This document shows positions 3,392 through 61,908 of a stretch of 64,000 nt of DNA, piece by piece. The position numbers and the translations under genes were made by a program. The stretch comes from a virus (taxonomy: Duplodnaviria > Caudoviricetes), in the IMG/VR virus record IMGVR_UViG_3300018405_000011. The stretch is one strand, 5' to 3'. Numbering within the stretch: the stretch's first letter is position 1; each line of letters opens with the position of its first letter. Below the pieces are notes generated by a model. That model was not told the origin of the DNA. It saw only the letters and a list, made by a program, of their open reading frames with translations, and made no database searches.

Positions 3392-3889
3392 AAAATTAAT
3401 GTAAACCATTAGAAGTCCGCCTGCGCAGTAATGTGCAGTAAATAAACTCCTCTAATTGCGGGAAGTTCTTGTTAGGTCTCAAGTACTCCCTTTACATGGA
3501 AACATCGTAAAGGTTAAAGTTAACGACTTTGGTTTTATAGTGATAATCTTGAGAATAGAGAAAATCGACGCAGCGAAGTTCCTAAGTCTATTAACAGATA
3601 TGGAATGAGTTCAACGACTATCGAAAGCTTAACTCCAGGAGAAATACCCGGAGGGATAATAGCCTAAGGTCAACATGCCTTAGGGGAAGCGAGTAGAGTA
3701 CGCCCACAAGTGAATGGTGGGGCTGTGATGGCTTAAATGGAAATGGGGAGCCCCTATAGCGCGGTAACAGTTCTATAGGGTGATGATATAGTCTCTTCGG
3801 CGAAAGCCCTTCCTGGGGTACTCCAGGTCGTCTAGCGAGAGCTAGAGCTGTATAACAGTAGGTGCGTTACGAGCACCTAGAAGACAAAG
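3392..3889 (+). mobile_element. ORF-less group I intron (498 nt) in the ADFDGD motif of vRNAP beta'
   Basis: 5' exon ends in U (GCGGAT) and pairs 6/6 with IGS GTCCGC (3415-3420), including the U.G wobble. Core elements: P AATTGCGGGAA (3454), Q ATCGACGCAGCGAAG (~3563), R GTTCAACGACTA (3609-3620), S ATGATATAGTCT (3783-3794). Terminal G at 3889; splicing restores GAD|FDGD. Confidence 0.92.
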
Positions 3890-4060
3890 TTTGATGGAGA
3901 TGTACTATCCTGTACACTCATTAATAGTGATGAGGGGGTTGCCGAGGCGAAAGCTAGACTGGCTGCTAAATCTACCTACATCTCGCCTAACGGCGGTTTA
4001 ACGTATAACCTCACAACGGACGTCAGCGACCTTGTGTTAAAAATAATGACGGGTGATTAA
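3890..4060 (+). CDS. Virion RNAP beta'-like subunit, exon 2 (56 aa; spliced product about 539 aa)
   Basis: TTT GAT GGA GAT = FDGD, then VLSCTLINSDEG...KIMTGD and TAA two bases before the next ATG. Confidence 0.9.
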   Translation, partial: FDGDVLSCTLINSDEGVAEAKARLAAKSTYISPNGGLTYNLTTDVSDLVLKIMTGD

Positions 4061-4062
4061 CC

Positions 4063-7000
4063 ATGACACTGATTAATGTCGATAATTTCATGCGACGCTT
4101 AGGGGCAAGGGAGAACCTACTGCTTACTTCAACCCCGCTAGTTGACATGATTAACTTAACGATGCCTAAAGGTACGTTATTGCATTATGTACCATTAAGT
4201 CCTGACGACCGAGGGTTCCGTGCAGACAGTTTACTTGCTGTACACTGGCCTACACGGATTCGCGTTAATCTAATTACAGAAGGGCTTTATCCTAACGGTA
4301 GAACACAGAACATTCAGTTTAACGCAATGAAGTATACTAAAGAGTACTTTAAGCGTCAGCCCGGTTTAAAGCGCAGTCGTAATTTAGAGCGTGACATTAT
4401 GGATGAACGTGACATGGTCGTCTTAGACTATACGTTGATTCCGCGTATGGTGCGCTATGCTCACAGTGTAGATGTGTATCAAAACTTCTGGGCTAACATG
4501 GCAGAAACGGTCATCCAGCAGATTAACCGAGTTAATGGACGTCGCCCACAGTTCATTCAGATTCCTATTGGTGGACATTGGATGACCGAAGCGGAGTTTA
4601 AAGTAAACTTAGAAGGTATCAGCGTTTCACACCGTGAACGACTTAGAGACCCAGCACTTCAATGGGTACTGGAAATCTACCGCATGTTAAAAGGGGCACC
4701 GAGCCTCATTGAGAAGATTACATCGGAAGACGTTTACTTTATATTCACCGTGGACACTAAGTCAGTCTTCTTGCCATTATCGGTACTTTATACTTTTGCA
4801 GATACCGATGCGCTTGCCGGGGCTAAGTTTCATGACCTGTTAGAAAAGCTTTTGATGACGCGCACGGTTTCTGACGAAGAAGCGGGGGCGATTTCAAAAG
4901 AAGCCGATACAGAAGATGCAAGTGATGAAGCCGTATCAAAACTGATGCCACCTGCATTACAGCAGCAGCTAGGGGAAATGGTAGAAGTCGGGTTATTAAC
5001 GGCGGCTCAGCAGAAACGCTATGCAAACGCAATTGTTGCTATGGCAGAGATTCCATCTCCGGATGGTAAAACTACTCTGGCTGAGTTTGCTACTGTTACT
5101 CCAGAAGACACGGTCATTGACCCAGACATCAATGTGCCGATTGATACTCCCATAGTACCAGAAAAAGCATTAAAGTCTACAGTCGCGAACATGAAGTCTA
5201 AGTATGTGCGTGAAGTCATGGACAAAGACATCGCTAATGTGTTCCTATCGTTAAACCGAGGCGGGGTTATCTTACGCGACTATAATGTCACTAAAACCGC
5301 AGACGCGTTAGAAGAAACGCAGACGCTGGAGATTACACTCCTGCCGGTGGTAGGGCGTGAAACCACCTTTAAAATAGAACTTCCTGTATTTAATGAAGAC
5401 GGAACGTTTATGGTAGGGGGGATCCGATACAGCATAGATAACCAAAAAACCGACATCCCGATTCGTAAGACAAAATCGAACCAAGCAGGCATTACTTCTT
5501 ACGCGGGTAAAATCTTTATCAATCGAAGTGGGTTAGCTAAGAACGACAGTGACCGATGGTTGCGTAAAGTTATCCGTGAAACTGCCATGAGTACGGCGGA
5601 TGAGCGAGTAACTAGCTTACGTTATGGCACTAACGCCGTACCTAACGTACTGCTGCCAAGAGACTACACTGCACTTATGGTTGACTACAGTGGGTTTAAG
5701 TCTGGTGACCTAACCTTTGACTTTGTATACAGTGGACGCATTGAGCGTTACGGTAAAGAAGTTGTTTCTCGTTTAGAGAAGAAAGGTTCAGTTATCTGCG
5801 GCACCTATAAAGGTGAGCCAATGGTCATGGATGTAAATGGGTTCATTACTGGTAAAGACTTACCTGGACTAGACATCTTAGGTACGCTAGGTGGTAGCTG
5901 GGGTAAACGCCCTGGTGACATTGCTGTCTTTAAGTCGGGTCGACGTGAAGTACCGGTTATTTATTTCATTGCCTACCATTTGGGTTTGGACAAGACTCTA
6001 CGTAAGTTAAAGGTACCTCATCGCTGGGAGACCTTAGACAAACGTTTAAGTCCAGGACTTAATGAAATCGCGGTAAACTTTGCCGATGAACGCATATACA
6101 TTACCGTATCAGACCCGCTACAAGCGATACTGTGGAATGGCTTAGCCGACATGGAGGACATGACGCGGCGCCTTAACAGTGCCGAGTTTAACCGTAAAGA
6201 CGGTTGGATGGCTTCCTTAAGTCATTACGGGGCGAATAAGTGGCATACTGATAACTGGACATTAATGAACGATTTGTTTTTAGACCCTATCACGTTAGAA
6301 GTATTGCGTGACATGAAAGAGCCTGAAAACTTAATTGACTTGTTTATTCGTGCTGCCGACCTGGTTAAGACCAATGATGCCCCTCGTGAATCCGACCCTA
6401 AATACATGCGTATTCGTGGGCTAGAACGTGTATCTGGACTTATCTATCTTGCCATGTACGAAGCTATTGCTGAGCAACGACGTAAGCCTAACGCGCGTAA
6501 TGAACCTATTACCATCGCGCCTACGGAGATATTGCGACGTCTAAATGAAGATGCATCCGTGCAACTTGTGTCTGAGATTAACCCTATCCATGCACTAAAG
6601 GAACAAGAGGCAGTTACCCTATCAGGAACAGGCGGACGTACCGCTCGTACACTGGTAAAACGTAACCGTGTCTTTGACCAAAACGACTTAGGAATTTTAA
6701 GTGAAAGTACCCCGGACTCTGCTAAAGTAGGGATACGTGGGTTCTTAACCCCAAATGCTAAAGTCCAGAGTCTTCGTGGTATGTATGGCGAGTATGATCC
6801 AGATGACGGTTCGAGTTCATTACTATCTACAACCGCATTAACGCTACCTGACATGGACCGTGATGATGGGAAACGCGCCGCTTTAGGGGCAATACAGCAG
6901 TCAGCGGTTGTCCCTACGGTCGGCAGTGAACCCATGCCGTATCGTACTGGATATGACGCTGTTATTGCTTCCCGCCTATCTGACTTCTTTGTCTTTAGGG

Positions 7001-19330: not shown

Positions 19331-19348
19331 CCATTTTAGGGGCGCACC

Positions 19349-22222
19349 ATGATTGATTTATCAACGGCCTTAATTCGAGACGCACTGACAAATGCCTGGG
19401 CAAACCCTGCCCAGGATAGACAGGTCCTAATTAAGCCAAAACAAGTAACCTCTGCACGAGGAACCATAGGGGCTTACCGTACGCCTTACAGTAGCTATCC
19501 GGTTCCCGATACCACCCATCGATGGATGCTTTATGAGTATGGGCAACTGCCGCCTCGATTTATTGGGTTAGACTTAGATAACTCAGTGTGGCGTTCTCTT
19601 AAAGAAGTCATGTCCCAGGAGGACGTGATCGCATTTCCAATGATACGTCATCGTATGCTTATGACGTCTACGGTAAAGGTAATTCGTCTTAATAACAATA
19701 ACCTTTTGTTTGCCGTAGAGATGGCATCCAATGCAGCGTTAATGAAAACAGATACTGACCTCTATGTTCGTTTTTACAGTAATGCGTTCTTTAGTACTGT
19801 AGAAGGCAGTGCCTATGGCGGTATTGAAACAGACGGCATTTTTGCGACAGATGGGACTGAAGCCGCGGCTCTACTGTCAGTATACAATACTTCTGGATAT
19901 GCAAACAGCGGTACGACATGGTGGTTTAAAAACGGTTATCTTACAGATAAGCCGACAGTTAACGACATTGCTATTGGCGATAACCTCCAGTACATATGGG
20001 ACTCATCGGGTATTCAGTACTACGATGTCCAGTTGAAGAACCTAACTTCCTTTACTAGCATTAAAGATCAAGTCTCTAAACTGTTGTTGGTAACGCCCGG
20101 TTACGTAGATACTGACTTAGTGTTCTATGACGATATCGAAATCTTCTTATACTCCGTTGATTTAAATGGTAAGAAGAAAGGTTGCTACTATGATCGTCAA
20201 CGCGTATCGGATTTAAGTCAAGTCACTTATCGTGACTGGAGTTTAGATGGTACACGCCTATCCGAAGTCATCTTAGAGCAAAATGGAGAGATTAACTACT
20301 CCTCGGCTTTTGTTCGAGTATACCTGCGTAAAACGGTAGCGATTACAACCGATATCGGTGACGGGTCTTACCTCGGTGACTTTTATAATATTGATGCGGC
20401 TGACCGCTATCGCATTCTTACCGGAAGCTACGGTAGCTTAACACGCTGGAAAGCGGCTGAGCTGGAAAACTCTCCGTTCATGAAATGGCTAGGAAGTGTA
20501 GGTACGGCATTAACGGAAGAGGACGTGCATCAGGTCTATAATTACTACGGGCTTCAACGTGCTGTACAGTTACCGGTTAAAAATGCAGGGGCATGGATTT
20601 TACCAGAAATGGCAAAGCAAGGCTGCCTTGTGGTTAATCTAGATTCCAATGGCGAATACCTAAGCCAGCAAGTCTATACTGAGGCAAGTTTTGGTATCGG
20701 GGTCCATACCCCAGTAGGGGATGTTGCAGATATCCTTGTCTACTGTGGTAACCTAATCACGACTCCAGTAGCAATGGACTTACCCGTGGTGTTAGGAAAT
20801 GATATTCCAGGTATCTTTGATGAAGAGCGGTTTTATTATGTCGGTGCGACACAGCAATGGGTAATTGCCACACAAGGGGCAGATTACACGTATACCGCCT
20901 CTACAGGGGCGATAGAGTGGTCATCGACTCATAACAGTACTTCTAAACTAAAACGCAGTGCTGGGCATTACACGCATCGTGAGCTTACCATTCCCTACAG
21001 TTCACTCTGTACACCAATCGATATCTTTGCGAATGGCACCCTTCCATCATCTAAACATGACTTTGGTCGAGTAGATGTATGGATAGATAACCAACGTGCT
21101 GTACCGGGATTGGATTATTTCGTGGATGGCTTTAAGTTGTACCTAACCACGAAAGAGTACATCGATTTAGAAACCGATGTAGACTCTAATCCACAACTTG
21201 CCCACGTTCGTTTTATTGCCCATGGTTTACCTAAGGATAGCGAAGCAGGTCAATATGGCTTTGTCGTGGAAGGAATGGTGAATCACGATAACGATATTGA
21301 TTTGGTTAAGAACCGCAATCAGACGTTGTTTATTAATGGCCGTAAGACGGATGTAAGTCAAGTATGGCTTGCTGAGGACTATCGTGGGGAATACGCGGTT
21401 AGATTTTCTACCGGGACTCTAGTGTCGTGGAGGGAAGGGACTGAGTATGTAGAGTACACACCTGTCGTCTATGACCGTGTTCTGTATGTTGCGCCATTAG
21501 GTGGCGTTGGCGCAACCCAGGTCTTTGATGAGACATTGTGGTTACGTGTATGGGAACTTAGTCATTTTACCTATGATGATAATGGGGTTACCCGCCACGT
21601 GAAGATTCACGCCGGTAAAGATACTGTACTAGTACGAAGTGTTGCCGTAGATGGCATTGAGGAAGAACCCGATACGTTTATTCCGCTGGCTTTGGGGGCT
21701 GACTATCAGCTTACCCCAGGATTGCCACTATCTGCTCCTCCAGCAAATGCCAGTACTTATCAGTTCACCAGTACTGCCAATGTCATTTCTCGTTTTGTCG
21801 CGCAGACCCTCGCTGAAAATGAAGCAGATAGTCGGACTATGACATCGACCATCTCTGCTTACCTAGAGGCACTCAGTCCGTCATATGAACTTAAAGGACC
21901 GATTAATATCCCTAGGCAGCACAGAGTCGTCAGTCCATTTATATCAGCGCTTACTAAGGCTATTCAAGCCGGGGAAATCAACCTGACCAGCGCTGACTTA
22001 AGTGAAGCGGCGGTCGATTTTCTTACTCGGGACTATCAGTATCTCTTTCATTATGACCCAGTCTATGACGATACGCAAAACCATGACTTTATTACTGGTT
22101 ATGGGCACTGTGAACTAGAAGCCATTGCGCTGCCAGCAAGGGCAGTCAACTTCCTAGCAAAATGCAGTGAGTATTTCTTTGACGGGCGTATACAAATTAA
22201 CCGCGACTTTACCATCGCGTAA
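19349..22222 (+). CDS. Large baseplate/structural protein (phiKZ gp27-like)
   Basis: 957 aa; WANPAQDRQ N-terminus and SQVTYRDWSL motif; synteny. Confidence 0.62.
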   Translation: MIDLSTALIRDALTNAWANPAQDRQVLIKPKQVTSARGTIGAYRTPYSSYPVPDTTHRWMLYEYGQLPPRFIGLDLDNSVWRSLKEVMSQEDVIAFPMIRHRMLMTSTVKVIRLNNNNLLFAVEMASNAALMKTDTDLYVRFYSNAFFSTVEGSAYGGIETDGIFATDGTEAAALLSVYNTSGYANSGTTWWFKNGYLTDKPTVNDIAIGDNLQYIWDSSGIQYYDVQLKNLTSFTSIKDQVSKLLLVTPGYVDTDLVFYDDIEIFLYSVDLNGKKKGCYYDRQRVSDLSQVTYRDWSLDGTRLSEVILEQNGEINYSSAFVRVYLRKTVAITTDIGDGSYLGDFYNIDAADRYRILTGSYGSLTRWKAAELENSPFMKWLGSVGTALTEEDVHQVYNYYGLQRAVQLPVKNAGAWILPEMAKQGCLVVNLDSNGEYLSQQVYTEASFGIGVHTPVGDVADILVYCGNLITTPVAMDLPVVLGNDIPGIFDEERFYYVGATQQWVIATQGADYTYTASTGAIEWSSTHNSTSKLKRSAGHYTHRELTIPYSSLCTPIDIFANGTLPSSKHDFGRVDVWIDNQRAVPGLDYFVDGFKLYLTTKEYIDLETDVDSNPQLAHVRFIAHGLPKDSEAGQYGFVVEGMVNHDNDIDLVKNRNQTLFINGRKTDVSQVWLAEDYRGEYAVRFSTGTLVSWREGTEYVEYTPVVYDRVLYVAPLGGVGATQVFDETLWLRVWELSHFTYDDNGVTRHVKIHAGKDTVLVRSVAVDGIEEEPDTFIPLALGADYQLTPGLPLSAPPANASTYQFTSTANVISRFVAQTLAENEADSRTMTSTISAYLEALSPSYELKGPINIPRQHRVVSPFISALTKAIQAGEINLTSADLSEAAVDFLTRDYQYLFHYDPVYDDTQNHDFITGYGHCELEAIALPARAVNFLAKCSEYFFDGRIQINRDFTIA

Positions 22223-49554: not shown

Positions 49555-50304
49555 ATGCCAAAAATCTTTTATCTCTCTACTGACACGGAAACCTTAGGGT
49601 TTAATGGACCGGTACGATTGCCAGATGGCACTATAGTCCAAGGTTGTGCATATTACCCTATCGTACAGATTGCAGGTAAGTTATTAGACGGACATTTAAA
49701 CGAACTAGCCCACTTTAATTATTTCATTCAACCTACCGCAGCACAAATGGCACGTGCCCTACCTGAAACTGTAGAATTTCATATTAAAAATGGTTTTGAC
49801 AAAGCATGGGACTCGGCCGAGCGCTTAAGTATCGAAGATGCACAGGTGGCTATCTACCAGTTCCTAGTCAGTCATCTGTCTATTCACTGCCCTGAGTACA
49901 TTAAAGAAGGGAAACTTCCTGAATACAAATACGATAACCCTGCAGTTATTATACTGCATGGTAAGTCTGTTAATTTCGATCGTACCTTTTTAAACTGCCA
50001 GTTACCTGAAATCGGTATGATACTAGGGCATCAAACCGCGGATGTCTCCGCTATCCGTACGTTAATGTACCCAGTAAAGCATTTACCTAACCGACTCTCT
50101 AAGACAACGTCTACCCATGATGCACTCGATGACGTCAATGCAGCGATTGCTGACCATAAGGCCATCTTAGATTTCTTAAACCTCGTCCCTGTACCCAAAG
50201 GCAAGTATCACTATTTAGAAGATGTCACTAACGTAGTATCTGAACAAAACAAAACCTATATTGCTAAAGTGATAACCTTCCTAAAAACCCACCTCTTTAA
50301 ATAA
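49555..50304 (+). CDS. Oligoribonuclease-like DEDDh 3'-5' exonuclease
   Basis: STDTETLG (ExoI), HGKSVNFDRTFL (ExoII), ADVSAI and THDALDD (ExoIII), Orn-like spacing. ATG at 49555 after AAGGA. Confidence 0.78.
   Translation: MPKIFYLSTDTETLGFNGPVRLPDGTIVQGCAYYPIVQIAGKLLDGHLNELAHFNYFIQPTAAQMARALPETVEFHIKNGFDKAWDSAERLSIEDAQVAIYQFLVSHLSIHCPEYIKEGKLPEYKYDNPAVIILHGKSVNFDRTFLNCQLPEIGMILGHQTADVSAIRTLMYPVKHLPNRLSKTTSTHDALDDVNAAIADHKAILDFLNLVPVPKGKYHYLEDVTNVVSEQNKTYIAKVITFLKTHLFK
50254..50264 (+). promoter_or_regulatory. Early-type promoter inside the exonuclease gene, upstream of nvRNAP beta'
   Basis: AAAACCTATATTGC, about 50 bp before the 50315 start. Confidence 0.5.
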
Positions 50305-51646: not shown

Positions 51647-53021
51647 AAACTAAAGTACAGTTTGCTCCATTAAGGAGAAACTCGTGGAAATTAAACTACA
51701 CGGAGACACTTTCAGAAAATCTTTAGAACATCCTTCTATTGTCGTTTCTCGGACCGGCAAACTCTTTAATCTAAAAGAAAACGCTTACATTGAAATCAAT
51801 CCTCCTAAAGAAGATTGGTACTTGACGTTTACTTCTCCTGACACAGGCAAGACATCATTACTCCATCGCTTAGTTGGGGAATGCTGGGTGTCTAACCCTA
51901 GCCCGGAAACGTTCACCCTGATTAACCATAAGAACGGTAATAAACATGACCCGCACTTTGGAAATCTAGAGTGGACCGACCATAGTGGTAATATACGTCA
52001 CGCCTATGAACATGGTCTACGTACCGAAATGCAGACACTCGAAGTTTTCGATAAAGTAACACAGAAATGGTTTAAATCTAAAGGTCTAAATAAGACCGCG
52101 GCCTTAATCGACCTATCTCCGGCGCAACTGTCTTATCACCTTAAGGCAAAGGGCTGGTTTGAAAATGCCAATTTCATCACTCAGCTTTCTAACCTGGAAA
52201 GCCGTAAGGTGGCTGACCGTACTTTGTTTCCAGTAGGTGTTTTCGCCAAAGATATCGAAACAGGGAAGGTCGTTATAGCTGAAAACATTTCGCGCCTATC
52301 TAAAACCATAGGGGTTCCGAAGTCCAATATAAGACGTTGCATAGTGAAGGGAAAAGAATACCCCTCCAATGGCTACTTGTTTAGTTTGGACGGTGAGTTC
52401 CCAGAGACATGGAAAGATAACCATCGGACTAAAAAAGCCGTGGTCTACTTACATGAAGACGGGCGTAGAGTAATTGCCGTTTCGGATAGAGAAGCACAGA
52501 AACTGACAGGTATTAATGCTAAGCGTATAGTTAGAATGAAGAAAGAAGGTTCATCCTTTAAAGGTTGGAAAGTGCAAACTGGATAAGTCCGCCTCTATGG
52601 TGACATACAGGTGAGAATACGTGAATTGCTGGTAAAGTCTAAAGCCTAACACCAAAACGGATAGCGAAAGCTAAAACGGTAACGGTGACGAAAGTCAGAA
52701 AAGACGTTAGGATGACCTATGGTGAGAGCCTAAGGGTTTTGACAATGGACAGCTCAGCAGCCAAGCGCCTACGGATTGTTGTGATAACAAGCTATGGTGA
52801 AGGTTCAACGACTATTACTGGGTACGGCACCCGATGTAGGAGAGCAAGCGCCTCCGAAGTGCGTATATCTGGAGTTGACTGAAGAAGTCTTATTCTCCAG
52901 AACTGATATAGTCTCGGCGTATCGCAAGATACCTGCTAGCCTGTGATGGTTAGTCGTCCGGTGAAACCCCGGAGCAGCATTAAGTTGCGGGTAAGGGATA
53001 GCATCCTTACTGAAGATAACG
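51647..53021 (+). mobile_element. Group I intron (1375 nt) with an HNH gene in the P1 loop, in the NADFDGD motif of nvRNAP beta'
   Basis: P AATTGCTGGTAA (52624), Q TCAGCAGCCAAG (52754), R GTTCAACGACTA (52803), S CTGATATAGTCT (52903), putative IGS GTCCGC (52587-52592), terminal G at 53021. Splicing restores NAD|FDGD. Confidence 0.9.
51684..52586 (+). CDS. Intron-encoded HNH homing endonuclease (I-HmuI-like, NUMOD repeats)
   Basis: LHRLVGECWV...INHKNGNKHDPHFGNLEWTDHSGNIRHAY plus C-terminal NUMOD1-like repeats; GTG start after AAGGAG. Confidence 0.9.
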   Translation: MEIKLHGDTFRKSLEHPSIVVSRTGKLFNLKENAYIEINPPKEDWYLTFTSPDTGKTSLLHRLVGECWVSNPSPETFTLINHKNGNKHDPHFGNLEWTDHSGNIRHAYEHGLRTEMQTLEVFDKVTQKWFKSKGLNKTAALIDLSPAQLSYHLKAKGWFENANFITQLSNLESRKVADRTLFPVGVFAKDIETGKVVIAENISRLSKTIGVPKSNIRRCIVKGKEYPSNGYLFSLDGEFPETWKDNHRTKKAVVYLHEDGRRVIAVSDREAQKLTGINAKRIVRMKKEGSSFKGWKVQTG

Positions 53022-54979: not shown

Positions 54980-55609
54980 ATGCTTAATACCATTTATGCC
55001 GATAGCGACGTCGGCATTGCCAGTTTGTTTGGTCGGCCCAGCCAAGCCTTACAAGCTAGAATCAATCAAGGGGTACAGGCTTTCTTAGAAAGAACCAGCC
55101 CCTATTGTTCAGACTTAGCGGCATCGGTAGCCCACCGTTTCCATGAATATACACATGGTGACTTTGCCCGCCGTGTAAATAGCGTCCGTGGGTACATTAA
55201 TCAAAGCTTTAAATCTGATGGAATCCGTTATCTATCTAATGTAGAAGAGTTACAGAATGCCCCTGCATCAATGCGTCATTATGTAATGGCACATCCTGGC
55301 ATGCGTGAACTCTATCAGCAAAACTGTATCGAAGGCTATGGCGATGCTTATCGTGATGCTTCGCCAACAGGTATTGGTCGCACTCACTACGACTATCGCG
55401 TCATTACTAATGGTGTTGTACAAGCAGAAGAAATGGATGACGGAGAAACAAGAATGATAGCTCGTCGTTATTACGAAGCGGTAGTGCCTGAGTACACGCC
55501 TACGTTAAGCGATAAGGCCGCAGTACAGATTACCTACGATGTACTGACTCGTCATTTACGTGACTCATTGCTTGACCCTAGTTCTGAAAACAATGCCTTA
55601 ATCGGCTAA
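54980..55609 (+). CDS. Conserved chimallivirus core protein (phiKZ gp59-like, reported as an import factor in phiKZ)
   Basis: HPGMRELYQQNCIEGYGDAYRDASPTGIGRTHYDYRVITNG motif as recalled; ATG at 54980 after GGAG. Confidence 0.55.
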   Translation: MLNTIYADSDVGIASLFGRPSQALQARINQGVQAFLERTSPYCSDLAASVAHRFHEYTHGDFARRVNSVRGYINQSFKSDGIRYLSNVEELQNAPASMRHYVMAHPGMRELYQQNCIEGYGDAYRDASPTGIGRTHYDYRVITNGVVQAEEMDDGETRMIARRYYEAVVPEYTPTLSDKAAVQITYDVLTRHLRDSLLDPSSENNALIG

Positions 55610-55662
55610 TAAAAGAAAGGGCGTTTGTCCTTTCTTTTTTGTCAACTATAGGAACCACCATC

Positions 55663-56076
55663 ATGCCCGTACCTGCAATAGGCACTCTATCGTCAGACGG
55701 TTACGTTACTGACCCTAAAAAACAACTTTCGTATATGTTTGCCCACATATTCGAAACCCGTCATAATGACACCATCCTTTTCACAGGACAACTTACTTCG
55801 ATTCAGTTACTGACCGCTAAGTACGCTAAAGACAGTGCGGTGTTTCGTACCGAACTTACGGCAGCATTAACAAAATACTTTTCTCGTGTCTTTGATAGTG
55901 CTAAAGTTATCGTTACCACTGAAGATATCGATGAGTCTAGCTACATGGCTTCTATAGACGTCAAGGTGACGCGTAATGGCGAACTTTATAGCTTAGGTGC
56001 TGAGCTGTCTATAGACCCCTTAAAATCCATTACACGCCTGATTAAGGAGATTAACCAGTCAATAACCTCCCCCTAA
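55663..56076 (+). CDS. Conserved structural protein (phiKZ gp62-like); last 5 residues and stop supplied by the IscB element
   Basis: MPVPAIGTLSSDGYV...HIFETRHNDT motif; C-terminus KEINQ-SITSP overlaps the element left end. Confidence 0.6.
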   Translation: MPVPAIGTLSSDGYVTDPKKQLSYMFAHIFETRHNDTILFTGQLTSIQLLTAKYAKDSAVFRTELTAALTKYFSRVFDSAKVIVTTEDIDESSYMASIDVKVTRNGELYSLGAELSIDPLKSITRLIKEINQSITSP

Positions 56077-56304
56077 AGGGGTAGGCTTGTAAAAGCCTAA
56101 TTGACCAGCCTTAGTTCTTAACAGAACTACGTTATCTTAGTTATCATACCCTGGGGTGGCCGGTCCAGCCCCAGGCTCTATGCAGGCTCTGTAAACAGTT
56201 CTAGAGGTAAGAACCGTCAACCTGGTGAGCCGATTACGGTAAGCTTTGATAACATTGGCGAGGACCACTTAACTGCTTAAATGCACGTAAACAGGAACGA
56301 TATT
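56058..56304 (+). ncRNA. omegaRNA scaffold 1 (guide is the host sequence just 5' of 56058)
   Basis: GTCAA...TTGACCAGCC, ACTACGTT, ATACC and CATTGGCGAGG elements typical of omegaRNA; compensatory changes relative to copy 2. Confidence 0.85.
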
Positions 56305-57762
56305 ATGTCTAATTCCGTATTCGTCTTAAATGACGATAAAACGCCCTTAATGCCGTGTAAGCCGGCTAGGGCGAGATTATTATTAAAACAAGGTAGGGCG
56401 GCTGTGTTTAGAACCCATCCCTTTACTATCATTCTAAAAGAACAGATAGAGAACCCTGTACTGGAAACGATAAGGGTAAAGGTAGACCCCGGTAGTAAAA
56501 CCACCGGGATAGCCTTAACAGTTCACTATAAAAGAGGAGTAAAGTGCATCTGGGGAGCCAACCTAGAACACCGAGGTCATGCTATAAAAGATGCATTACT
56601 ATCTAGAGCACAGTGTCGTAGAGGGAGGCGTGGCCGAAAGTTACGCCACCGTAAACCTAGATTCTTAAATCGGTTTAAACCTGAGGGATGGCTTGCACCA
56701 AGCATTATGTCTAGAGTAGATAATACACTAACTTGGGTAAATCGCTTGATGCGGTACTGTCCTGTGGGACAGGCCTCTGTAGAACTTGTTAAGTTTGATA
56801 TGCAGAAGATGGAAAATCCTGAGGTTACAGGTAAAGGATACCAACAAGGTACTTTACACAACTATGAAGTTAAAGAATACTTACTGTATCGCTATAACCA
56901 TACTTGTCAGTATTGCAAAGGCGTCAGTAAAGACCATATTCTAGAGATAGAGCACATTGTACCTAAATCTAAAGGAGGCACGAATAGTATTGGTAATCTA
57001 ACTTTAGCCTGTTCGAGCTGTAACCGACATAAGAATAACCATACTTTGAAAGACTGGTTAGAAATAAACCGTGGTCTAAAAACACCTCTGGCTAAAGCCA
57101 GGGTACGTAACATCCCTAGTGTGATATCAAGACGTAAACCTACGCTTAGAGACGCTGCCGCTGTCAATGCGACGAGACATAGGCTAGTAGAAGAGCTAGG
57201 GTTTTTAGGACTACCGACGGAGTCGGAGGGAGGGCATGTTACGAAGTATAACCGCCGCCGGCAAGGCTATCCGAAGGACCACTGGATAGATGCTGCGCTA
57301 GTAGGTGATACGGGCAGTAACGTGCACATACCGAAATCTACGCATCCGTTACTTATTAAAAAGACTAAAGTTAATAACCGTCAAATGACTAGGCCGGATA
57401 AGTATGGTTTTCCTAGAACTAAACCTAAAGGCCCGTCTAAAGCCTTCGGGTTTAAAACAGGTGATGTGGCTAAGCATGGTAGGCTTATTGGCCGCGTAGC
57501 GATAAGAACATGCGGTTACTTTAACTTTTTAGGTAAAGGCTGCAGTTACCGGCACTTAAAACGTATCCAGTCAGTAGATGGTTACCAGTACACCGACGGT
57601 AAGTTAACAAGTCTAATAACAGAAACCGACTACTTGCCATGGTTTACTTATGTACATTCCGTTACTAAAATAGATGGTAGTGCTAAAAAGATAACTGGCA
57701 AGCTTAATAAGGAGGGAAAGAGATTTTTATGTACACCAAAAAATACATCAGGCACGTCCTGA
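56305..57762 (+). CDS. iscB: IscB RNA-guided endonuclease 1 (485 aa)
   Basis: PLMP domain, RuvC-I VDPGSK, RRGRR bridge helix, RuvC-II VELVKFD, HNH CQYC...EIEHIVP...GGTN...NL...CNRHK, RuvC-III KDHWIDA. Start inferred from alignment with copy 2. Confidence 0.93.
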   Translation: MSNSVFVLNDDKTPLMPCKPARARLLLKQGRAAVFRTHPFTIILKEQIENPVLETIRVKVDPGSKTTGIALTVHYKRGVKCIWGANLEHRGHAIKDALLSRAQCRRGRRGRKLRHRKPRFLNRFKPEGWLAPSIMSRVDNTLTWVNRLMRYCPVGQASVELVKFDMQKMENPEVTGKGYQQGTLHNYEVKEYLLYRYNHTCQYCKGVSKDHILEIEHIVPKSKGGTNSIGNLTLACSSCNRHKNNHTLKDWLEINRGLKTPLAKARVRNIPSVISRRKPTLRDAAAVNATRHRLVEELGFLGLPTESEGGHVTKYNRRRQGYPKDHWIDAALVGDTGSNVHIPKSTHPLLIKKTKVNNRQMTRPDKYGFPRTKPKGPSKAFGFKTGDVAKHGRLIGRVAIRTCGYFNFLGKGCSYRHLKRIQSVDGYQYTDGKLTSLITETDYLPWFTYVHSVTKIDGSAKKITGKLNKEGKRFLCTPKNTSGTS

Positions 57763-57802
57763 TTCCTCAGGGGACTAAAGTCCCCGGTATTCTCAGGAGA
57801 AA
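57763..57802 (+). repeat. Right-end subterminal hairpin of IscB element 1
   Basis: TTCCTCAGGGGACTAAAGTCCCCGGTATTCTCAGGAG; same CTAAAG loop as the left end; also supplies the RBS of the next gene. Confidence 0.75.
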
Positions 57803-57807
57803 ATAAA

Positions 57808-58284
57808 ATGAGTGGTTTTATAGTCCCAGAAAACGTTTTTCCTTCTATTAAGGAAAGTTTGTTCCGTGACCGTTATTTGCCTGCCTTCATTAATAACGAT
57901 AAAGAGCTTTGCTTAGAGTGGGTAGAGCGCATCTCTATCTCTCCCTTTGCAAAAGTACGTGTAGTCGATGATTCGGATATGGATAAGATTCTATTTGAAG
58001 TCCCGCCACTAGTACGTGGTCCAGAGACTCAGATAGGCGGAAACTTCAATGCCGTAATGCAAACCGCTAGCCGTATTGCAGAAAACTACAACAGTAAAGT
58101 GACTGAGCGCTATATCCGTGATACGTTAAATGGGCGCTTTGTCTGTGAAACCGAATCCGACGCTGACATGGAAGCGTGGATTGACATTGCAATTCGTTAT
58201 GGATATAGTCGTCCAGATACACCACAATCTACTGCCTCAGGAAACAATAATGGATTGGTTAACGAAGAAGAAGACTGGGATTAA
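57808..58284 (+). CDS. Conserved chimallivirus protein (phiKZ gp63/64-like)
   Basis: FRDRYLPAF...VRVVDD...LFEVPPL motif; precedes the SbcD-like gene. Confidence 0.55.
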   Translation: MSGFIVPENVFPSIKESLFRDRYLPAFINNDKELCLEWVERISISPFAKVRVVDDSDMDKILFEVPPLVRGPETQIGGNFNAVMQTASRIAENYNSKVTERYIRDTLNGRFVCETESDADMEAWIDIAIRYGYSRPDTPQSTASGNNNGLVNEEEDWD

Positions 58285-59422
58285 CATCCTTTACTTTTCC
58301 GATGTACATATGCTTCATCCCCGTGTACGCAGTCGAGATATTGCTGACCGATTACAAAAGCTAATCCTTAATGTTATCAAACACCATGTGTTAGACTATA
58401 TCATCATTGCTGGGGACTTTTATGATGAAAGTGGCTATTTACCCGATGAAGATGTATTTGTAGTAGAAGAGTTTATACGTGTGCTGATTCATCTATGTGC
58501 ACATAATCATATCAAGCTTCGGATACTAGAAGGTACCCCGTCCCACGATAGAAAGCAATCTCGCCACTTCGTTAAGGTAAATAATTTCCTTAGTGGAAAA
58601 GAAAAGGCCGACTTAAAATACATCGAGACATTGGACATTGTTAAGGAAGAAGATGGTTCGACATGGCTTTATGTCCCAGATGAATGGCATCATGACCCAG
58701 ATGTTGTCTGGAAGCAGGTACGGGATAGGCTGAATCAGGAAGGTTTAACTCAGGTAGACTTTTCCGTAACACACGGGATGTATAAGCACCATGTACCACA
58801 TGGACTGGATTTAAAAGCCCATGACCCTGACCGGTATCTGGATATCACCCGTTACTATGTAGACAATGGGCATATCCATACAAAGTCTGTCTACAAAGAC
58901 AGGTTCATTACCAATGGGTCACCTGACCGTTTGGCTATGGGGGAAGAGGAAAGTAAAGGGATATGGATGGCTCATGTAAGTAGTCACTCACGTATGGAAG
59001 ACAAATTGTTTTTCTTTGAAAATAAAGAAGCCACGTATATGGTAACTTTAGACATTAAAGAACATACCTTTGAGAGAAGTAAAGAAGTCATCGAGTCCCA
59101 TTGCCATCCTACAGAAAGACGCTTTATTCGTCTGGAAATCTCAGAAGAGCTTTATAGTCAAGGACTGATGAGTTATTTCCAAGACTTATACCCTAATATA
59201 GTCTGGACAAAAAAGGTCACTCGCAATGACAATATGCAAGTCTCTTTTTTAGAGGCATTAAATGCTAAAGTGCACAATAGACCTATTAATGCCAACACAA
59301 TCGAAGACCTTTTCTTAGAAGAAGCACGTCTTCGTAATGTAGACGAGAATGAGGTTATAGATGCCTTAGCTTTTTTGAAATCCCAACCCTTTTATGTCAG
59401 TAACCTCCCCCTAAAGGGGTAG
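58250..59422 (+). CDS. SbcD/Mre11-like metallophosphoesterase nuclease (phiKZ gp65-like); last 8 residues supplied by IscB element 2
   Basis: FSDVH, AGDFYD, EGTPSHD, THG, NGHIH and NGSPDRL motifs; ATG at 58250. Confidence 0.85.
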   Translation: MDWLTKKKTGINILYFSDVHMLHPRVRSRDIADRLQKLILNVIKHHVLDYIIIAGDFYDESGYLPDEDVFVVEEFIRVLIHLCAHNHIKLRILEGTPSHDRKQSRHFVKVNNFLSGKEKADLKYIETLDIVKEEDGSTWLYVPDEWHHDPDVVWKQVRDRLNQEGLTQVDFSVTHGMYKHHVPHGLDLKAHDPDRYLDITRYYVDNGHIHTKSVYKDRFITNGSPDRLAMGEEESKGIWMAHVSSHSRMEDKLFFFENKEATYMVTLDIKEHTFERSKEVIESHCHPTERRFIRLEISEELYSQGLMSYFQDLYPNIVWTKKVTRNDNMQVSFLEALNAKVHNRPINANTIEDLFLEEARLRNVDENEVIDALAFLKSQPFYVSNLPLKG

Positions 59423-59642
59423 GCATGTAAGTGCCTAACTGACCAGCCTTAGTCCCGTTAGGGACTACGTTATCTTAGTTATCATACCCCGGTGTGGCCG
59501 GTCCAGCACCGGGCGCTATGCAGGCTCTGTAAACATACCTAGAGGTAGGGTAAGTCAACCTGGAGAGCCGATTACGGTAAGCTTTGATAACATTGACGAG
59601 GACCACGTAACTGCCCTACGGGCACGTAAAGGGAACGATATT
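59396..59642 (+). ncRNA. omegaRNA scaffold 2
   Basis: Aligns end to end with scaffold 1, with compensatory substitutions in six stems. Confidence 0.85.
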
Positions 59643-61115
59643 ATGTCTAATTCCGTATTCGTCTTAAATGACGATAAAACGCCATTAATGCCGTGTAAAC
59701 CGGCACGGGCGAGATTATTATTAAAACAAGGTAGGGCAGCAGTTTTCAGAAAGCAGCCCTTTACTATCATTATGAAAGAACAGATAGAAAACCCTGTTCT
59801 TGAGAACATTGAGGTAAAGATAGACCCCGGTAGTAAAACCACCGGGATAGCGCTAGTAATGAATACTAAACGTGGAGCTAGATGTATCTGGGGTGCCAAC
59901 CTTAAGCACCGAGGTCAGCAGATACGTGATGCCTTATTGTCCCGCGCTCAAACGCGACGGGGGCGACGCAGTCGTAAACTGCGCTACCGTAAGCCTCGAT
60001 TTTTAAACCGAGTTAAATCTAAAGGGTGGTTGGCGCCCAGTATTTACACTCGAGTAGATAATACCCTCACTTGGGTTAACCGTCTTATGCGCTATTCGCC
60101 AGTGACGTCGGCAGTGGTTGAACTCGTTAAGTTTGATATGCAAAAGATGGAAAACCCGGAGATTGCAGGTAAGGCGTATCAGCGAGGAAGTCTCTTTAAC
60201 TATGAAGTTAAAGAGTATTTACTGTATCGATATAACCACACCTGTCAGTATTGTTCTGGTGCATCTAAAGACCCCATTTTGGAGATTGAACATATTGTTC
60301 CTAGAGCATCAGGTGGTAGCAATCGACTGAGTAACCTGACACTCTCCTGTGCGACATGTAACCGAGAGAAAGGGAAACTGTCTTTGGCTGACTGGAAGGA
60401 TAAATGTACCCACCGAAAAAACCCTATTGACATGAAGCGATTAAAAGGTATTGTTCGAGTGGGACAGAACATTAAGCCCGCACTGAAAGATGCGGCTGCC
60501 GTGAACGCTACTCGATATCGTCTAGTAGCTGAGCTGGACTATCTGGGACTACATACGGAAACCTCAGGAGGACACATTACCAAATATAATCGTAAGCAAC
60601 AGGGTTATCCGAAGGACCATTGGATAGATGCTGCTTTAGTCGGAGAAAGGGGTTCTCACGTTCATATCCCTCCGGAGTTACATCCTTTAATCATTAAAAA
60701 GGTAAAAGTTAATAACCGCCAGATGACAAAGCCTGACAAATATGGCTTCCCTCGAACGAAAGCTAAAGGTCCTTCCCGAGCTTTCGGTTTTAAGACAGGA
60801 GATATCGCGGCTTCCCCGTTTGGCGTGGGGAGGGTGGTCATCCGGACCTCGGGTACTTTTAACGTATTAGGAAGAGATGTTAGCTGGAAGCGTTTAGTCC
60901 ATCTCTCCTTTACTGACGGTTACGAATATGTGGACCAACGCATCGTCAAGATGATTGTTGATAAGCATACTGTAATTAAAGAGGTGTTTGAGAGAGTCAT
61001 ATCAAAAACATTAATTGACGCCGATTCCCTTCTCATAGAAGGTACATTGAATCGTAAAGTAGTTCATGGTATCCGTAGGGACAGTAAAACTAGAGACCAT
61101 ACTAAACTATATTAA
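59643..61115 (+). CDS. iscB: IscB RNA-guided endonuclease 2 (490 aa)
   Basis: PLMP, IDPGSK, RRGRR, VELVKFD, CQYC...EIEHIVP...CNREK and KDHWIDA all intact. Confidence 0.93.
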   Translation: MSNSVFVLNDDKTPLMPCKPARARLLLKQGRAAVFRKQPFTIIMKEQIENPVLENIEVKIDPGSKTTGIALVMNTKRGARCIWGANLKHRGQQIRDALLSRAQTRRGRRSRKLRYRKPRFLNRVKSKGWLAPSIYTRVDNTLTWVNRLMRYSPVTSAVVELVKFDMQKMENPEIAGKAYQRGSLFNYEVKEYLLYRYNHTCQYCSGASKDPILEIEHIVPRASGGSNRLSNLTLSCATCNREKGKLSLADWKDKCTHRKNPIDMKRLKGIVRVGQNIKPALKDAAAVNATRYRLVAELDYLGLHTETSGGHITKYNRKQQGYPKDHWIDAALVGERGSHVHIPPELHPLIIKKVKVNNRQMTKPDKYGFPRTKAKGPSRAFGFKTGDIAASPFGVGRVVIRTSGTFNVLGRDVSWKRLVHLSFTDGYEYVDQRIVKMIVDKHTVIKEVFERVISKTLIDADSLLIEGTLNRKVVHGIRRDSKTRDHTKLY

Positions 61116-61131
61116 TCATAAGGAGTAAACG

Positions 61132-61908
61132 ATGACTCCACGTACCGTAGGAGAAAAGTTAGCGTTTTCAGTAGGGACAGCTATCCCTTTAGAGGAACAC
61201 GTTGTTTCAGATGGGTATAAAGCCGACGCTATTCTGTTAAACGTGAAAACGTTATTTAGAAACTTCTGGGGGGCGTGGCCAAATACCGACCGTCCTCCAG
61301 TACAGCAAATGTTTGAGCTTTTTGTAGAAGAAGTTAGAGACATTATGGCACTGTGTCAAACGATGGGAATAACACCTGTCCTATATCACTTGACTTATGC
61401 CTCACTGAGCAATCGTTATCCGAATGCTACGTTAGTAGTTCCTAAGACCGATAACCAGAAGGCCTATGCCAGCGCCGAAGCAGCTATGATGAAGGTAGCC
61501 ATTAGTCAGTTCCCAGAAATGGTAAAGAGCGATTTAACATTACCGTCTTTTAACGGAAACGTTTATCTGTTAAGTTCATACCCAGTAGACTTACTTAATG
61601 CGCATCGCTATGTATCGTTAAAGTTACTCGAGAGCCATACGGGGAATGTGAAAGGACGCGCTGAGTGGTTTAGTAAACTCAGTAACGCTCCTGAACTACA
61701 ACACCTTCCATTTAACCATTTCATGTTACAGGTATTTGGTGACCGGGCTACTCAGTTTGTAGGCCAATCCCAGAAGATAAAGAAAGCCGTCATTAAACTA
61801 GCACTTTCTCGTAACTGGAATCAGTCTACTACCCTTACCCGTATACGTGAAAATCTCACATCGATTGAAGACAGTGACTTGCGCAAACAGTGCCTGTCAT
61901 TTGTCTAA
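61132..61908 (+). CDS. Conserved chimallivirus core protein (phiKZ gp66-like)
   Basis: NVKTLFRN, YPVDLL, LLESHTG and LPFN...LQVFGD motifs; synteny. Confidence 0.55.
   Translation: MTPRTVGEKLAFSVGTAIPLEEHVVSDGYKADAILLNVKTLFRNFWGAWPNTDRPPVQQMFELFVEEVRDIMALCQTMGITPVLYHLTYASLSNRYPNATLVVPKTDNQKAYASAEAAMMKVAISQFPEMVKSDLTLPSFNGNVYLLSSYPVDLLNAHRYVSLKLLESHTGNVKGRAEWFSKLSNAPELQHLPFNHFMLQVFGDRATQFVGQSQKIKKAVIKLALSRNWNQSTTLTRIRENLTSIEDSDLRKQCLSFV

Follow-up and report, generated by a model that had tools for sequence, protein, structure and literature searches.

Two IscB–omegaRNA elements at gene junctions of a jumbo phage and the motifs that flank them

The 64,000 nucleotides (nt) of IMG/VR virus record IMGVR_UViG_3300018405_000011 (Duplodnaviria; Caudoviricetes), referred to here as the window, contain two genuine IscB–omegaRNA elements, A and B. 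In each, a HEARO omegaRNA is followed by iscB, and both sit in sense orientation at gene junctions of one operon. They are most likely non-autonomous ISC-type elements of the IS200/IS605 superfamily. The explanation that we favour, and consider likely as a whole, is that A occupies 56058-57807 at an N/ATGA target, that B lies at an ATAA-type target, and that the elements home between co-infecting phages. An earlier sequence-only reading had reconstructed both empty sites and predicted ATAAR as the target-adjacent motif (TAM) of both elements. Its observation is partly confirmed and its interpretation partly supported; on the comparisons below, the TAM proposal is not upheld for A and is unproven for B. 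The locus is a further well-resolved case of a phage IscB element, a kind already known: IscB genes form PHROG 2214 ('HNH endonuclease') and occur in 19 cultured phage records.

The two elements and their left ends

All features lie on the + strand. The omegaRNA scaffolds of A (56058-56273) and B (59396-59611) match the Rfam model RF02033 over its full length (1-211), at 139.1 and 117.2 bits, and nine pairs of their stems show compensatory changes across A, B and a third copy, C, found in a related phage. The iscB genes start 31 nt past the HEARO 3' end in both elements, on the same strand, and encode 485 amino acids (aa) in A (56305-57762) and 490 aa in B (59643-61115). Both proteins contain the Pfam domains RRXRR (3.9e-71, that of A, and 9.2e-72) and HNH (7.9e-13 and 6e-12 across the two), and solved IscB chains in the PDB match them at 2.9e-42 to 3e-25. 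All RuvC and HNH blocks are kept among the IscBs of A, B and C, and DPGSKTTG, EIEHIVP..GG..N and HWIDAA are conserved in all three. Ratios of nonsynonymous to synonymous substitution rates (Ka/Ks) of 0.18 (A versus C) and 0.10 (B versus A) indicate that the cores are under purifying selection.

A and B are 67% identical up to residue ~430, including a well-conserved C-terminal TAM-interacting region, and then diverge into unrelated tails. These C-terminal extensions of ~60 aa (57595-57762 and 60935-61115; also in copy C) go beyond the usual IscB length of ~425-445 aa. The tails of A and C are homologous, with a Ka/Ks of 0.53, and that of B found no homologue but itself in 5.8 billion proteins. 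There is too little space for a tnpA gene inside either element.

The left boundaries and the guides predicted from them are well supported, because position 1 of the HEARO model falls exactly on GTCA at 56058 and 59396 and because similarity between related element pairs from other genomes begins exactly at GTCA. GTCA is the 5' terminus of A, B and C alike, and a left-end hairpin is present in every copy. As the sequence-only reading had proposed, the putative guides are the left flanks that abut HEARO position 1, at 56038-56057 for A, where the flank is colinear with the relatives' gene ends, and at 59376-59395 for B; they end ..GATTAACCA and ..CCCTTTTAT. Its account of self-escape also stands, in that GTCA, the start of the scaffold, follows the guide match in the element-bearing copy.

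The left ends also explain how a coding operon could accommodate such insertions. With the elements present, the host open reading frames (ORFs) stop inside them, at 56074-56076 (TAA) and 59420-59422 (TAG): the last six codons and the stop of the upstream 145-aa gene lie within A, and the last nine codons and the stop of the SbcD-like gene within B. The first 27 bases of the omegaRNA (56058-56084 and 59396-59422) hold stops in three frames (..CAA/CAG TAA; ..CCC TAA; ..GGG TAG), so any upstream ORF entering the element terminates within nine codons. Because the 5' end carries these stop codons, insertion is nearly silent without splicing, as had been suggested together with the element-supplied stops. 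For A and C, the native Shine-Dalgarno sequence of the downstream gene (AAGGAG or GAGG; AAGGAG in the left flank of A) ends up in the guide, upstream of the element. A new AGGAG comes with the element's tail and stands 8 nt upstream of the ATG in A, 6 nt upstream in C.

Right boundaries and target motifs

At its right end, A carries TTCCTC followed by a subterminal hairpin, GGGGAC-TAAA-GTCCCC, at 57770-57785; such a motif and hairpin recur in at least 19 other IscB elements. Element A has a perfect hairpin (DNA fold z = -3.6) and C a bulged one, whereas B, with z = 0.2, has lost it. In A it is followed by a tail (57786-57807) with AGGAG at 57795-57799 and 'ATAAA' at 57803-57807, to which C has a homologous counterpart. 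We also noted that right-end tails in phages often resemble a Shine-Dalgarno sequence plus spacer for a gene starting at the ATGA target. Their last ~8 nt differ even between close elements (57786-57807; L006 6481-6500; L060 ~4035-4055; L035/L040).

The empty sites had been rebuilt by joining 56057 to 57803, giving ..AAC CA/A TAA AATG, and 59395 to 61118, giving ..TTT TAT/ATA AGG AGT AAA CGA TGA, the last codon of which overlaps the ATG at 61132. The arithmetic of both joins holds, and both chosen right flanks begin ATAA(A/G). Comparison with relatives' empty junctions, which had been set as the test of the prediction, gives a different picture at site A. In the closest relative, a 93-kb metagenomic phage contig (L003), the site is empty and reads ..ATTAAC GC/ATGAGT, ending the upstream gene ..INA-stop through the ATGA overlap. 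In Vibrio phage vB_VmeM-Yong it reads ..ATTAAC CG/ATGACA (..INR-stop), and neither has ATAAA. With A ending at 57807, the window itself reads ..ATTAAC CA/element/ATGAGT. Aligned to L003, the ATGA join needs no gaps and scores 82; the ATAAA join scores 57.5 with 10 gap characters, equivalent to a 5-base length difference.

We assign ATAAA at 57803-57807 to the inserted DNA because neither L003 nor Yong has it at the empty site. Element A is thus best read as 56058-57807, with N/ATGAG as its probable target and ..AAC CA/ATGAGT as the probable ancestral junction, a stop/start overlap in which the TGA of ATGA closes KEINQ. ATGAG at 57808-57812, which holds the start codon of the 158-aa gene downstream, is the most likely target and TAM of A, given the relatives' N/ATGAG and N/ATGAC and the family rule described below. 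Of the gene ends reconstructed earlier, KEINQ-stop at site A survives, since either join produces it, and the right junction of A does not, given its 5-base length difference from L003; that of B is plausible, with a possible error of one base. In any case a 'clean' stop is no evidence for a join, since one or two of the three frames should yield one by chance.

Copy C provides the reciprocal case. It lies at a different locus (L006) of the same 93-kb contig, with its own HEARO and an IscB 87% identical to that of A, tail included. Its right end is homologous to A's, running from TTCCTC through the hairpin to ..CTCAGGAGAAAATA and then ATGATC, so that its terminus is ..GAGAAAATA/ATGATC. Searching the window with the L006 flanks (blastn, then alignment) located the matching empty site at 19331-19351, with the break at 19348/19349 and the sequence ..GCGCACC/ATGATT; Yong is empty there too (..TTACC/ATGTTT). 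Sites A and B are both empty in L003 and the C site is empty in the window, a reciprocal distribution. In these alignments, the insert extends exactly to the ATG at two independent, outgroup-polarised sites, A and C. Tested for an ATAAA or NTAAA flank, the empty sites instead show ATGAG and ATGAC at A, and ATGAT and ATGTT at C; a resemblance to that motif is confined to the ATAAG flank predicted for B.

The same target recurs across the family. Our comparison drew on IscB loci 40-49% identical to A, of which 16 came from IMG/VR and 33 from bacteria; HEARO was present at every viral locus. Right ends were anchored on the TTCCTC-type motif and hairpin; bacterial multi-copy loci gave few usable pairs. 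Beyond the elements described above, the right end was recognisable at 21 IscB loci, and 19 of these have [AG]TGA 12-30 nt past the hairpin. The genes downstream of all three copies begin ATGA, a start shared by only 41% of the ORFs in the window, and at some loci (L012, L046) the [AG]TGA is not a gene start.

An exact empty site comes from cultured Ralstonia phages. Adzire (L065) carries a HEARO-iscB element at 1185-2912, GTCA...GCAGACTG, and Bakoly, whose flanks are 99.6% identical, has the undisturbed sequence ..GGACGGTGT/ATGAGAAAA, that is ..GGTGT/ATGAGAAAA, or N/ATGAG, with no target duplication. Two additional phage genera, represented by Alix and Heva, have an element 99% identical to it in different positions, followed by ATGAG and ATGAT. 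Published work agrees: empty sites place GTCA-ended ISC transposons at N/ATGA, and a co-mobilised IS605B element also uses ATAA and ATCA targets (Kapitonov 2016, PMC4810608); the TAM of GstIscB, TTCAT at the left end, equals ATGAA in IscB orientation (Meers 2023, bioRxiv 10.1101/2023.03.14.532601).

Some further observations concern this wider collection. Besides Adzire, the phages Simangalove, Elie and Sarlave carry the Ralstonia element, and the 99.6%-identical Bakoly and Jenny lack it precisely; its annotation is only 'HNH endonuclease' or hypothetical. In Heva (L068, ~360-400) and at L020 (~2200-2260), the right-end remnant of another ISC element, hairpin and tail, abuts the GTCA of the complete element. 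Insertion of a second element at the retained ATGA would produce such a layout, and the guide of that second element would then be the end of the first. A metagenomic IscB (L061 2252-4025; 52% identical to A, 489 aa, tailed) has no recognisable right hairpin and is followed by GGGAG-N7-ATGT rather than ATGA, which makes it, after B, a second example of right-end degradation. Beside the IscB of a Nodularia phage, the supposed 'transposase' is a fragment of TnpB.

Element B is harder to place. Its right boundary falls within 61116-61131, where the candidates are 61117/61118 (ATAAG), 61118/61119 (TAA in frame) and 61131/61132 (ATGAC). Against L003 and Yong, the join at 61132 scores 4.5 and 23, and those at 61118 or 61119 score ~25 and ~31. 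The latter joins also retain a native-looking GGAG, and at 50302 the phage has another, native junction of the type TAA-GGAG-N6-ATG. On these alignments we lean, by a little, towards the junction proposed earlier (61117/61118), to within one base; a junction at ATGA is the less probable choice, though one to be taken seriously, and a small remainder goes to other positions. The flank of B most likely starts (A)TAAGGAG, seemingly a variant, ATAA-type target. A motif ATRA would then span A (ATGAG), C (ATGAT) and B (ATAAG), and would match purine-rich IscB TAMs such as NWRRNA.

Two stricter alternatives bracket these boundaries. If ATAAR were the target throughout, A and B would end at 57802 and 61117, 5 and 14 nt before the ATG, ATAAA and ATAAG would be native, and empty site A would read ..AACCA/ATAAAATG. 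Precedents exist: IscB-1 (PMC11610941), the first IscB to be characterised, has ATAAA as a TAM, and OrufIscB (PMC13180657) has NTAAA. The attribution of ATAAA to KraIscB-1 made in the sequence-only reading holds for IscB-1, but the commentary names no organism, and the motif is not transferable to element A. For B, the ATAAG join gives the CGATGA overlap, a native-looking Shine-Dalgarno sequence and the best alignment to relatives. Other observations weigh against our own boundary for A: the hairpin-to-ATGA tail is 22 nt in A and 20 nt in C, the ATAA boundary is 17 nt in both, and ATAA is found at that proposed boundary in A, B and C alike, in B after an unrelated right end. Relatives lacking the ATAAR motif could, moreover, be empty precisely for that lack. 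However, this alternative needs indels of ATAAA (A) and ATA (C) to coincide exactly with the element, where in the sister phage and the outgroup the left flank abuts the ATG; copy C would show ATAAT, not ATAAR; and RTGA is the family-wide target, for which Ralstonia phages and published work (PMC4810608) provide exact empty sites. The equal hairpin distance is weak evidence: tails across the family measure 12 to 25 nt, and even related elements such as L035 and L040 disagree in the final ~8 nt. We dropped hairpin-to-cut distance as a means of choosing between ATAA and ATGA. ATAA ahead of an ATG is also common in this phage, standing within 20 nt upstream of 16 of the 59 ORF starts in the window (27%), which makes two occurrences a ~7% event. 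Taken together, we regard ATAAR as the common target as improbable.

If ATGA were instead the strict rule, B would reach 61131 with the target N/ATGAC, the 14 nt that carry GGAG would be its own tail, and the SbcD gene would have lost its stop after insertion (TAA to TAT, for example), a loss made tolerable by the stops that the element brings in every frame. The N/RTGA family rule, the ATGA starts of the three downstream genes, the Shine-Dalgarno-like stretch just before the ATG in the tails of A, C and L060, and the conserved TAM-interacting region shared by the two IscBs all point this way. The 59395/61132 join, however, leaves SbcD without a stop and fused in frame to the next gene; the resulting empty site would have no Shine-Dalgarno sequence, the alignments to L003 and Yong are the poorer ones given above, and the junction type with TAA and GGAG is a native one here. 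That stopless SbcD also has a cost for the preferred pairing of ATGA for A with ATAA for B, as the two elements then need different third-position variants (ATGA versus ATAA). We consider the strict rule possible, though on balance unlikely.

Homing between co-infecting phages

We propose that A and B most likely act as RNA-guided homing elements between co-infecting phages. A read-through transcript of the host operon would yield the omegaRNA, and the final ~16-20 nt of the gene upstream would form its 5' guide; such transcripts would include the guide because the elements lie sense-oriented within the operon. IscB–omegaRNA would then cut element-free alleles of co-infecting related phages, in which the guide match is followed by ATRA, and repair by recombination from element-bearing genomes would copy the element in, amounting to homing and marker exclusion of the competitor. 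The carrier would be immune, as the guide match there precedes GTCA. The 5' end of A provides the new stop for the upstream gene, and its 3' tail the new AGGAG Shine-Dalgarno sequence for the downstream gene. We infer homing because bacterial IscB and TnpB act in this way at donor joints (bioRxiv 10.1101/2023.03.14.532601). The reciprocal elements and empty sites of two jumbo phages and the presence or absence of the Ralstonia element support it. A 2026 review (PMC13565253) treats homing by OMEGA nucleases in phages as a theoretical possibility.

Some results tell against this proposal. Guide A has three mismatches to the relatives' sites, two of which lie beside the TAM, and at the other sites there are more; judged from these mismatches, present-day homing into relatives of the L003 or Yong type is doubtful. 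Four freshwater metagenome studies contain this phage, with both elements present every time, and no empty-site allele of the same phage was found among the contigs of four freshwater metagenome runs over 55600-61400, a comparison that used contigs only and is uninformative on rare empty alleles.

These same results would also suit elements that have become immobile relics or been co-opted for roles unrelated to homing, for example transcriptional or anti-competitor ones, and that no longer cut empty sites. The absent right hairpin of B and the degraded one of C would fit, as would the unique C-terminal tails, which with a tail Ka/Ks of 0.53 suggest drift. Yet the cores of the IscBs are intact: purifying selection acts on them, and all three copies preserve every RuvC and HNH block. 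The omegaRNAs, too, have kept their full length and show compensatory changes, and hairpin loss touches only TnpA-dependent transposition, not RNA-guided cutting. We therefore give the relic reading little credence. Homing, as proposed above, could also go with a change of lifestyle: jumbo-phage IscB elements may have switched from TnpA-dependent transposition to purely RNA-guided homing and competitor exclusion, with decay of the transposase-binding right hairpin (still intact in A, but bulged in C and missing from B), the tail reshaped into a ribosome-binding site, and the ~60-aa extensions perhaps aiding entry into the phage nucleus, the compartment that holds the competitor's DNA. This would be a novel lifestyle and is, in our estimate, a long shot. 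Within it, the extensions would be phage-specific and absent in bacterial and small-phage IscBs, a suggestion to which we attach equally small weight.

The source of the window is a nucleus-forming-type (phiKZ-like) jumbo phage of freshwater metagenomes. The genes that flank the elements encode a 145-aa protein of unknown function, the 158-aa protein, an SbcD-like nuclease and a 258-aa protein, and their nearest named relatives are in phiKZ-like jumbo phages, Vibrio phage vB_VmeM-Yong among them. The 145-aa gene (55639-56076; PHROG 3294) has homologues in Yong and L003, whose products end ..EEINR-stop and ..KEINA-stop. The SbcD-like gene (58250-59422) matches PHROG 100 at 3.8e-39, jumbo-phage SbcD-like genes by tblastn, and Yong in alignment. 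Its homologue in L003, found by protein search, is 82% identical. Searching 50,697 phage records with the left-flank DNA gave no match, and SbcD scans of IMG/VR gave no close relative. Apart from the IscB elements, the window contains two group I introns above the Rfam gathering score, at 3393-3810 (56.4 bits) and 52545-52934 (52 bits), and L003 holds one at 3733-4111.

Comparison with known systems

What do these elements add to the picture of OMEGA nucleases? On the practical side, the candidate motif for these compact IscBs of 485 and 490 aa is ATGA(N), and for B also ATAAG, rather than ATAAR alone. Two related jumbo phages that carry IscB cassettes at sites empty in the other form a reciprocal example, which fits OMEGA nucleases as RNA-guided homing endonucleases. 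The locus also illustrates near-silent insertion into an operon, by 5' stops in three frames and a 3' Shine-Dalgarno sequence.

The elements are closest in architecture to the ISC transposons (PMC4810608), with which they share the GTCA left end, a left-end subterminal hairpin (the right-end one is perfect only in A), insertion immediately 5' of ATGA in A and C, no target duplication and, mostly, a content of iscB only. They differ from these in their jumbo-phage host, the ~60-aa IscB extensions, and the absence of a right hairpin in B, which lies at an apparent ATAA-type site. ISGst5 of Geobacillus stearothermophilus and its GstIscB (bioRxiv 10.1101/2023.03.14.532601) offer the closest parallel in mechanism: the omegaRNA lies upstream of iscB, the guide is derived from the flank, and the TAM is ATGAA. 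GstIscB cuts the element-free joint and drives recombinational re-copying, and iscB elements are biased towards the orientation of the upstream gene. There, however, the nuclease restores the transposon after TnpA excision in a bacterial chromosome, whereas the elements described here contain no TnpA and would likely target co-infecting phage genomes. IscB-1 and OrufIscB (PMC11610941, PMC13180657) likewise combine IscB with a HEARO-type omegaRNA and a TAM 3' of the target, which the ATAAG of B resembles. The proteins are distant, though (1.4e-15 to an OrufIscB-derived PDB chain), and the empty sites of A in relatives are without ATAAA.

Among phages, the Ralstonia element (Adzire, Simangalove, Elie, Alix, Claudette, Heva; GenBank MT7407xx) is alike in having HEARO plus an iscB whose product is 44% identical, and the layout GTCA...hairpin-tail/ATGA. 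It is present or absent in near-identical phages and sits at different sites in three phage genera. It differs in its 45-58 kb hosts, in an IscB without the C-terminal extension and in a right hairpin that is intact in all copies. As these phages have been cultured with and without the element, they are a tractable homing system. Finally, we would like to place the elements beside the homing endonuclease genes of phages, such as Seg and Mob of T4 and the intron-encoded HNH enzymes. Presence or absence between relatives, insertion at gene junctions and an expected spread by cutting and co-conversion are common to both. In the elements described here, however, recognition would rely on a guide RNA copied from the flank together with a motif of 4-5 nt, and not on protein alone.

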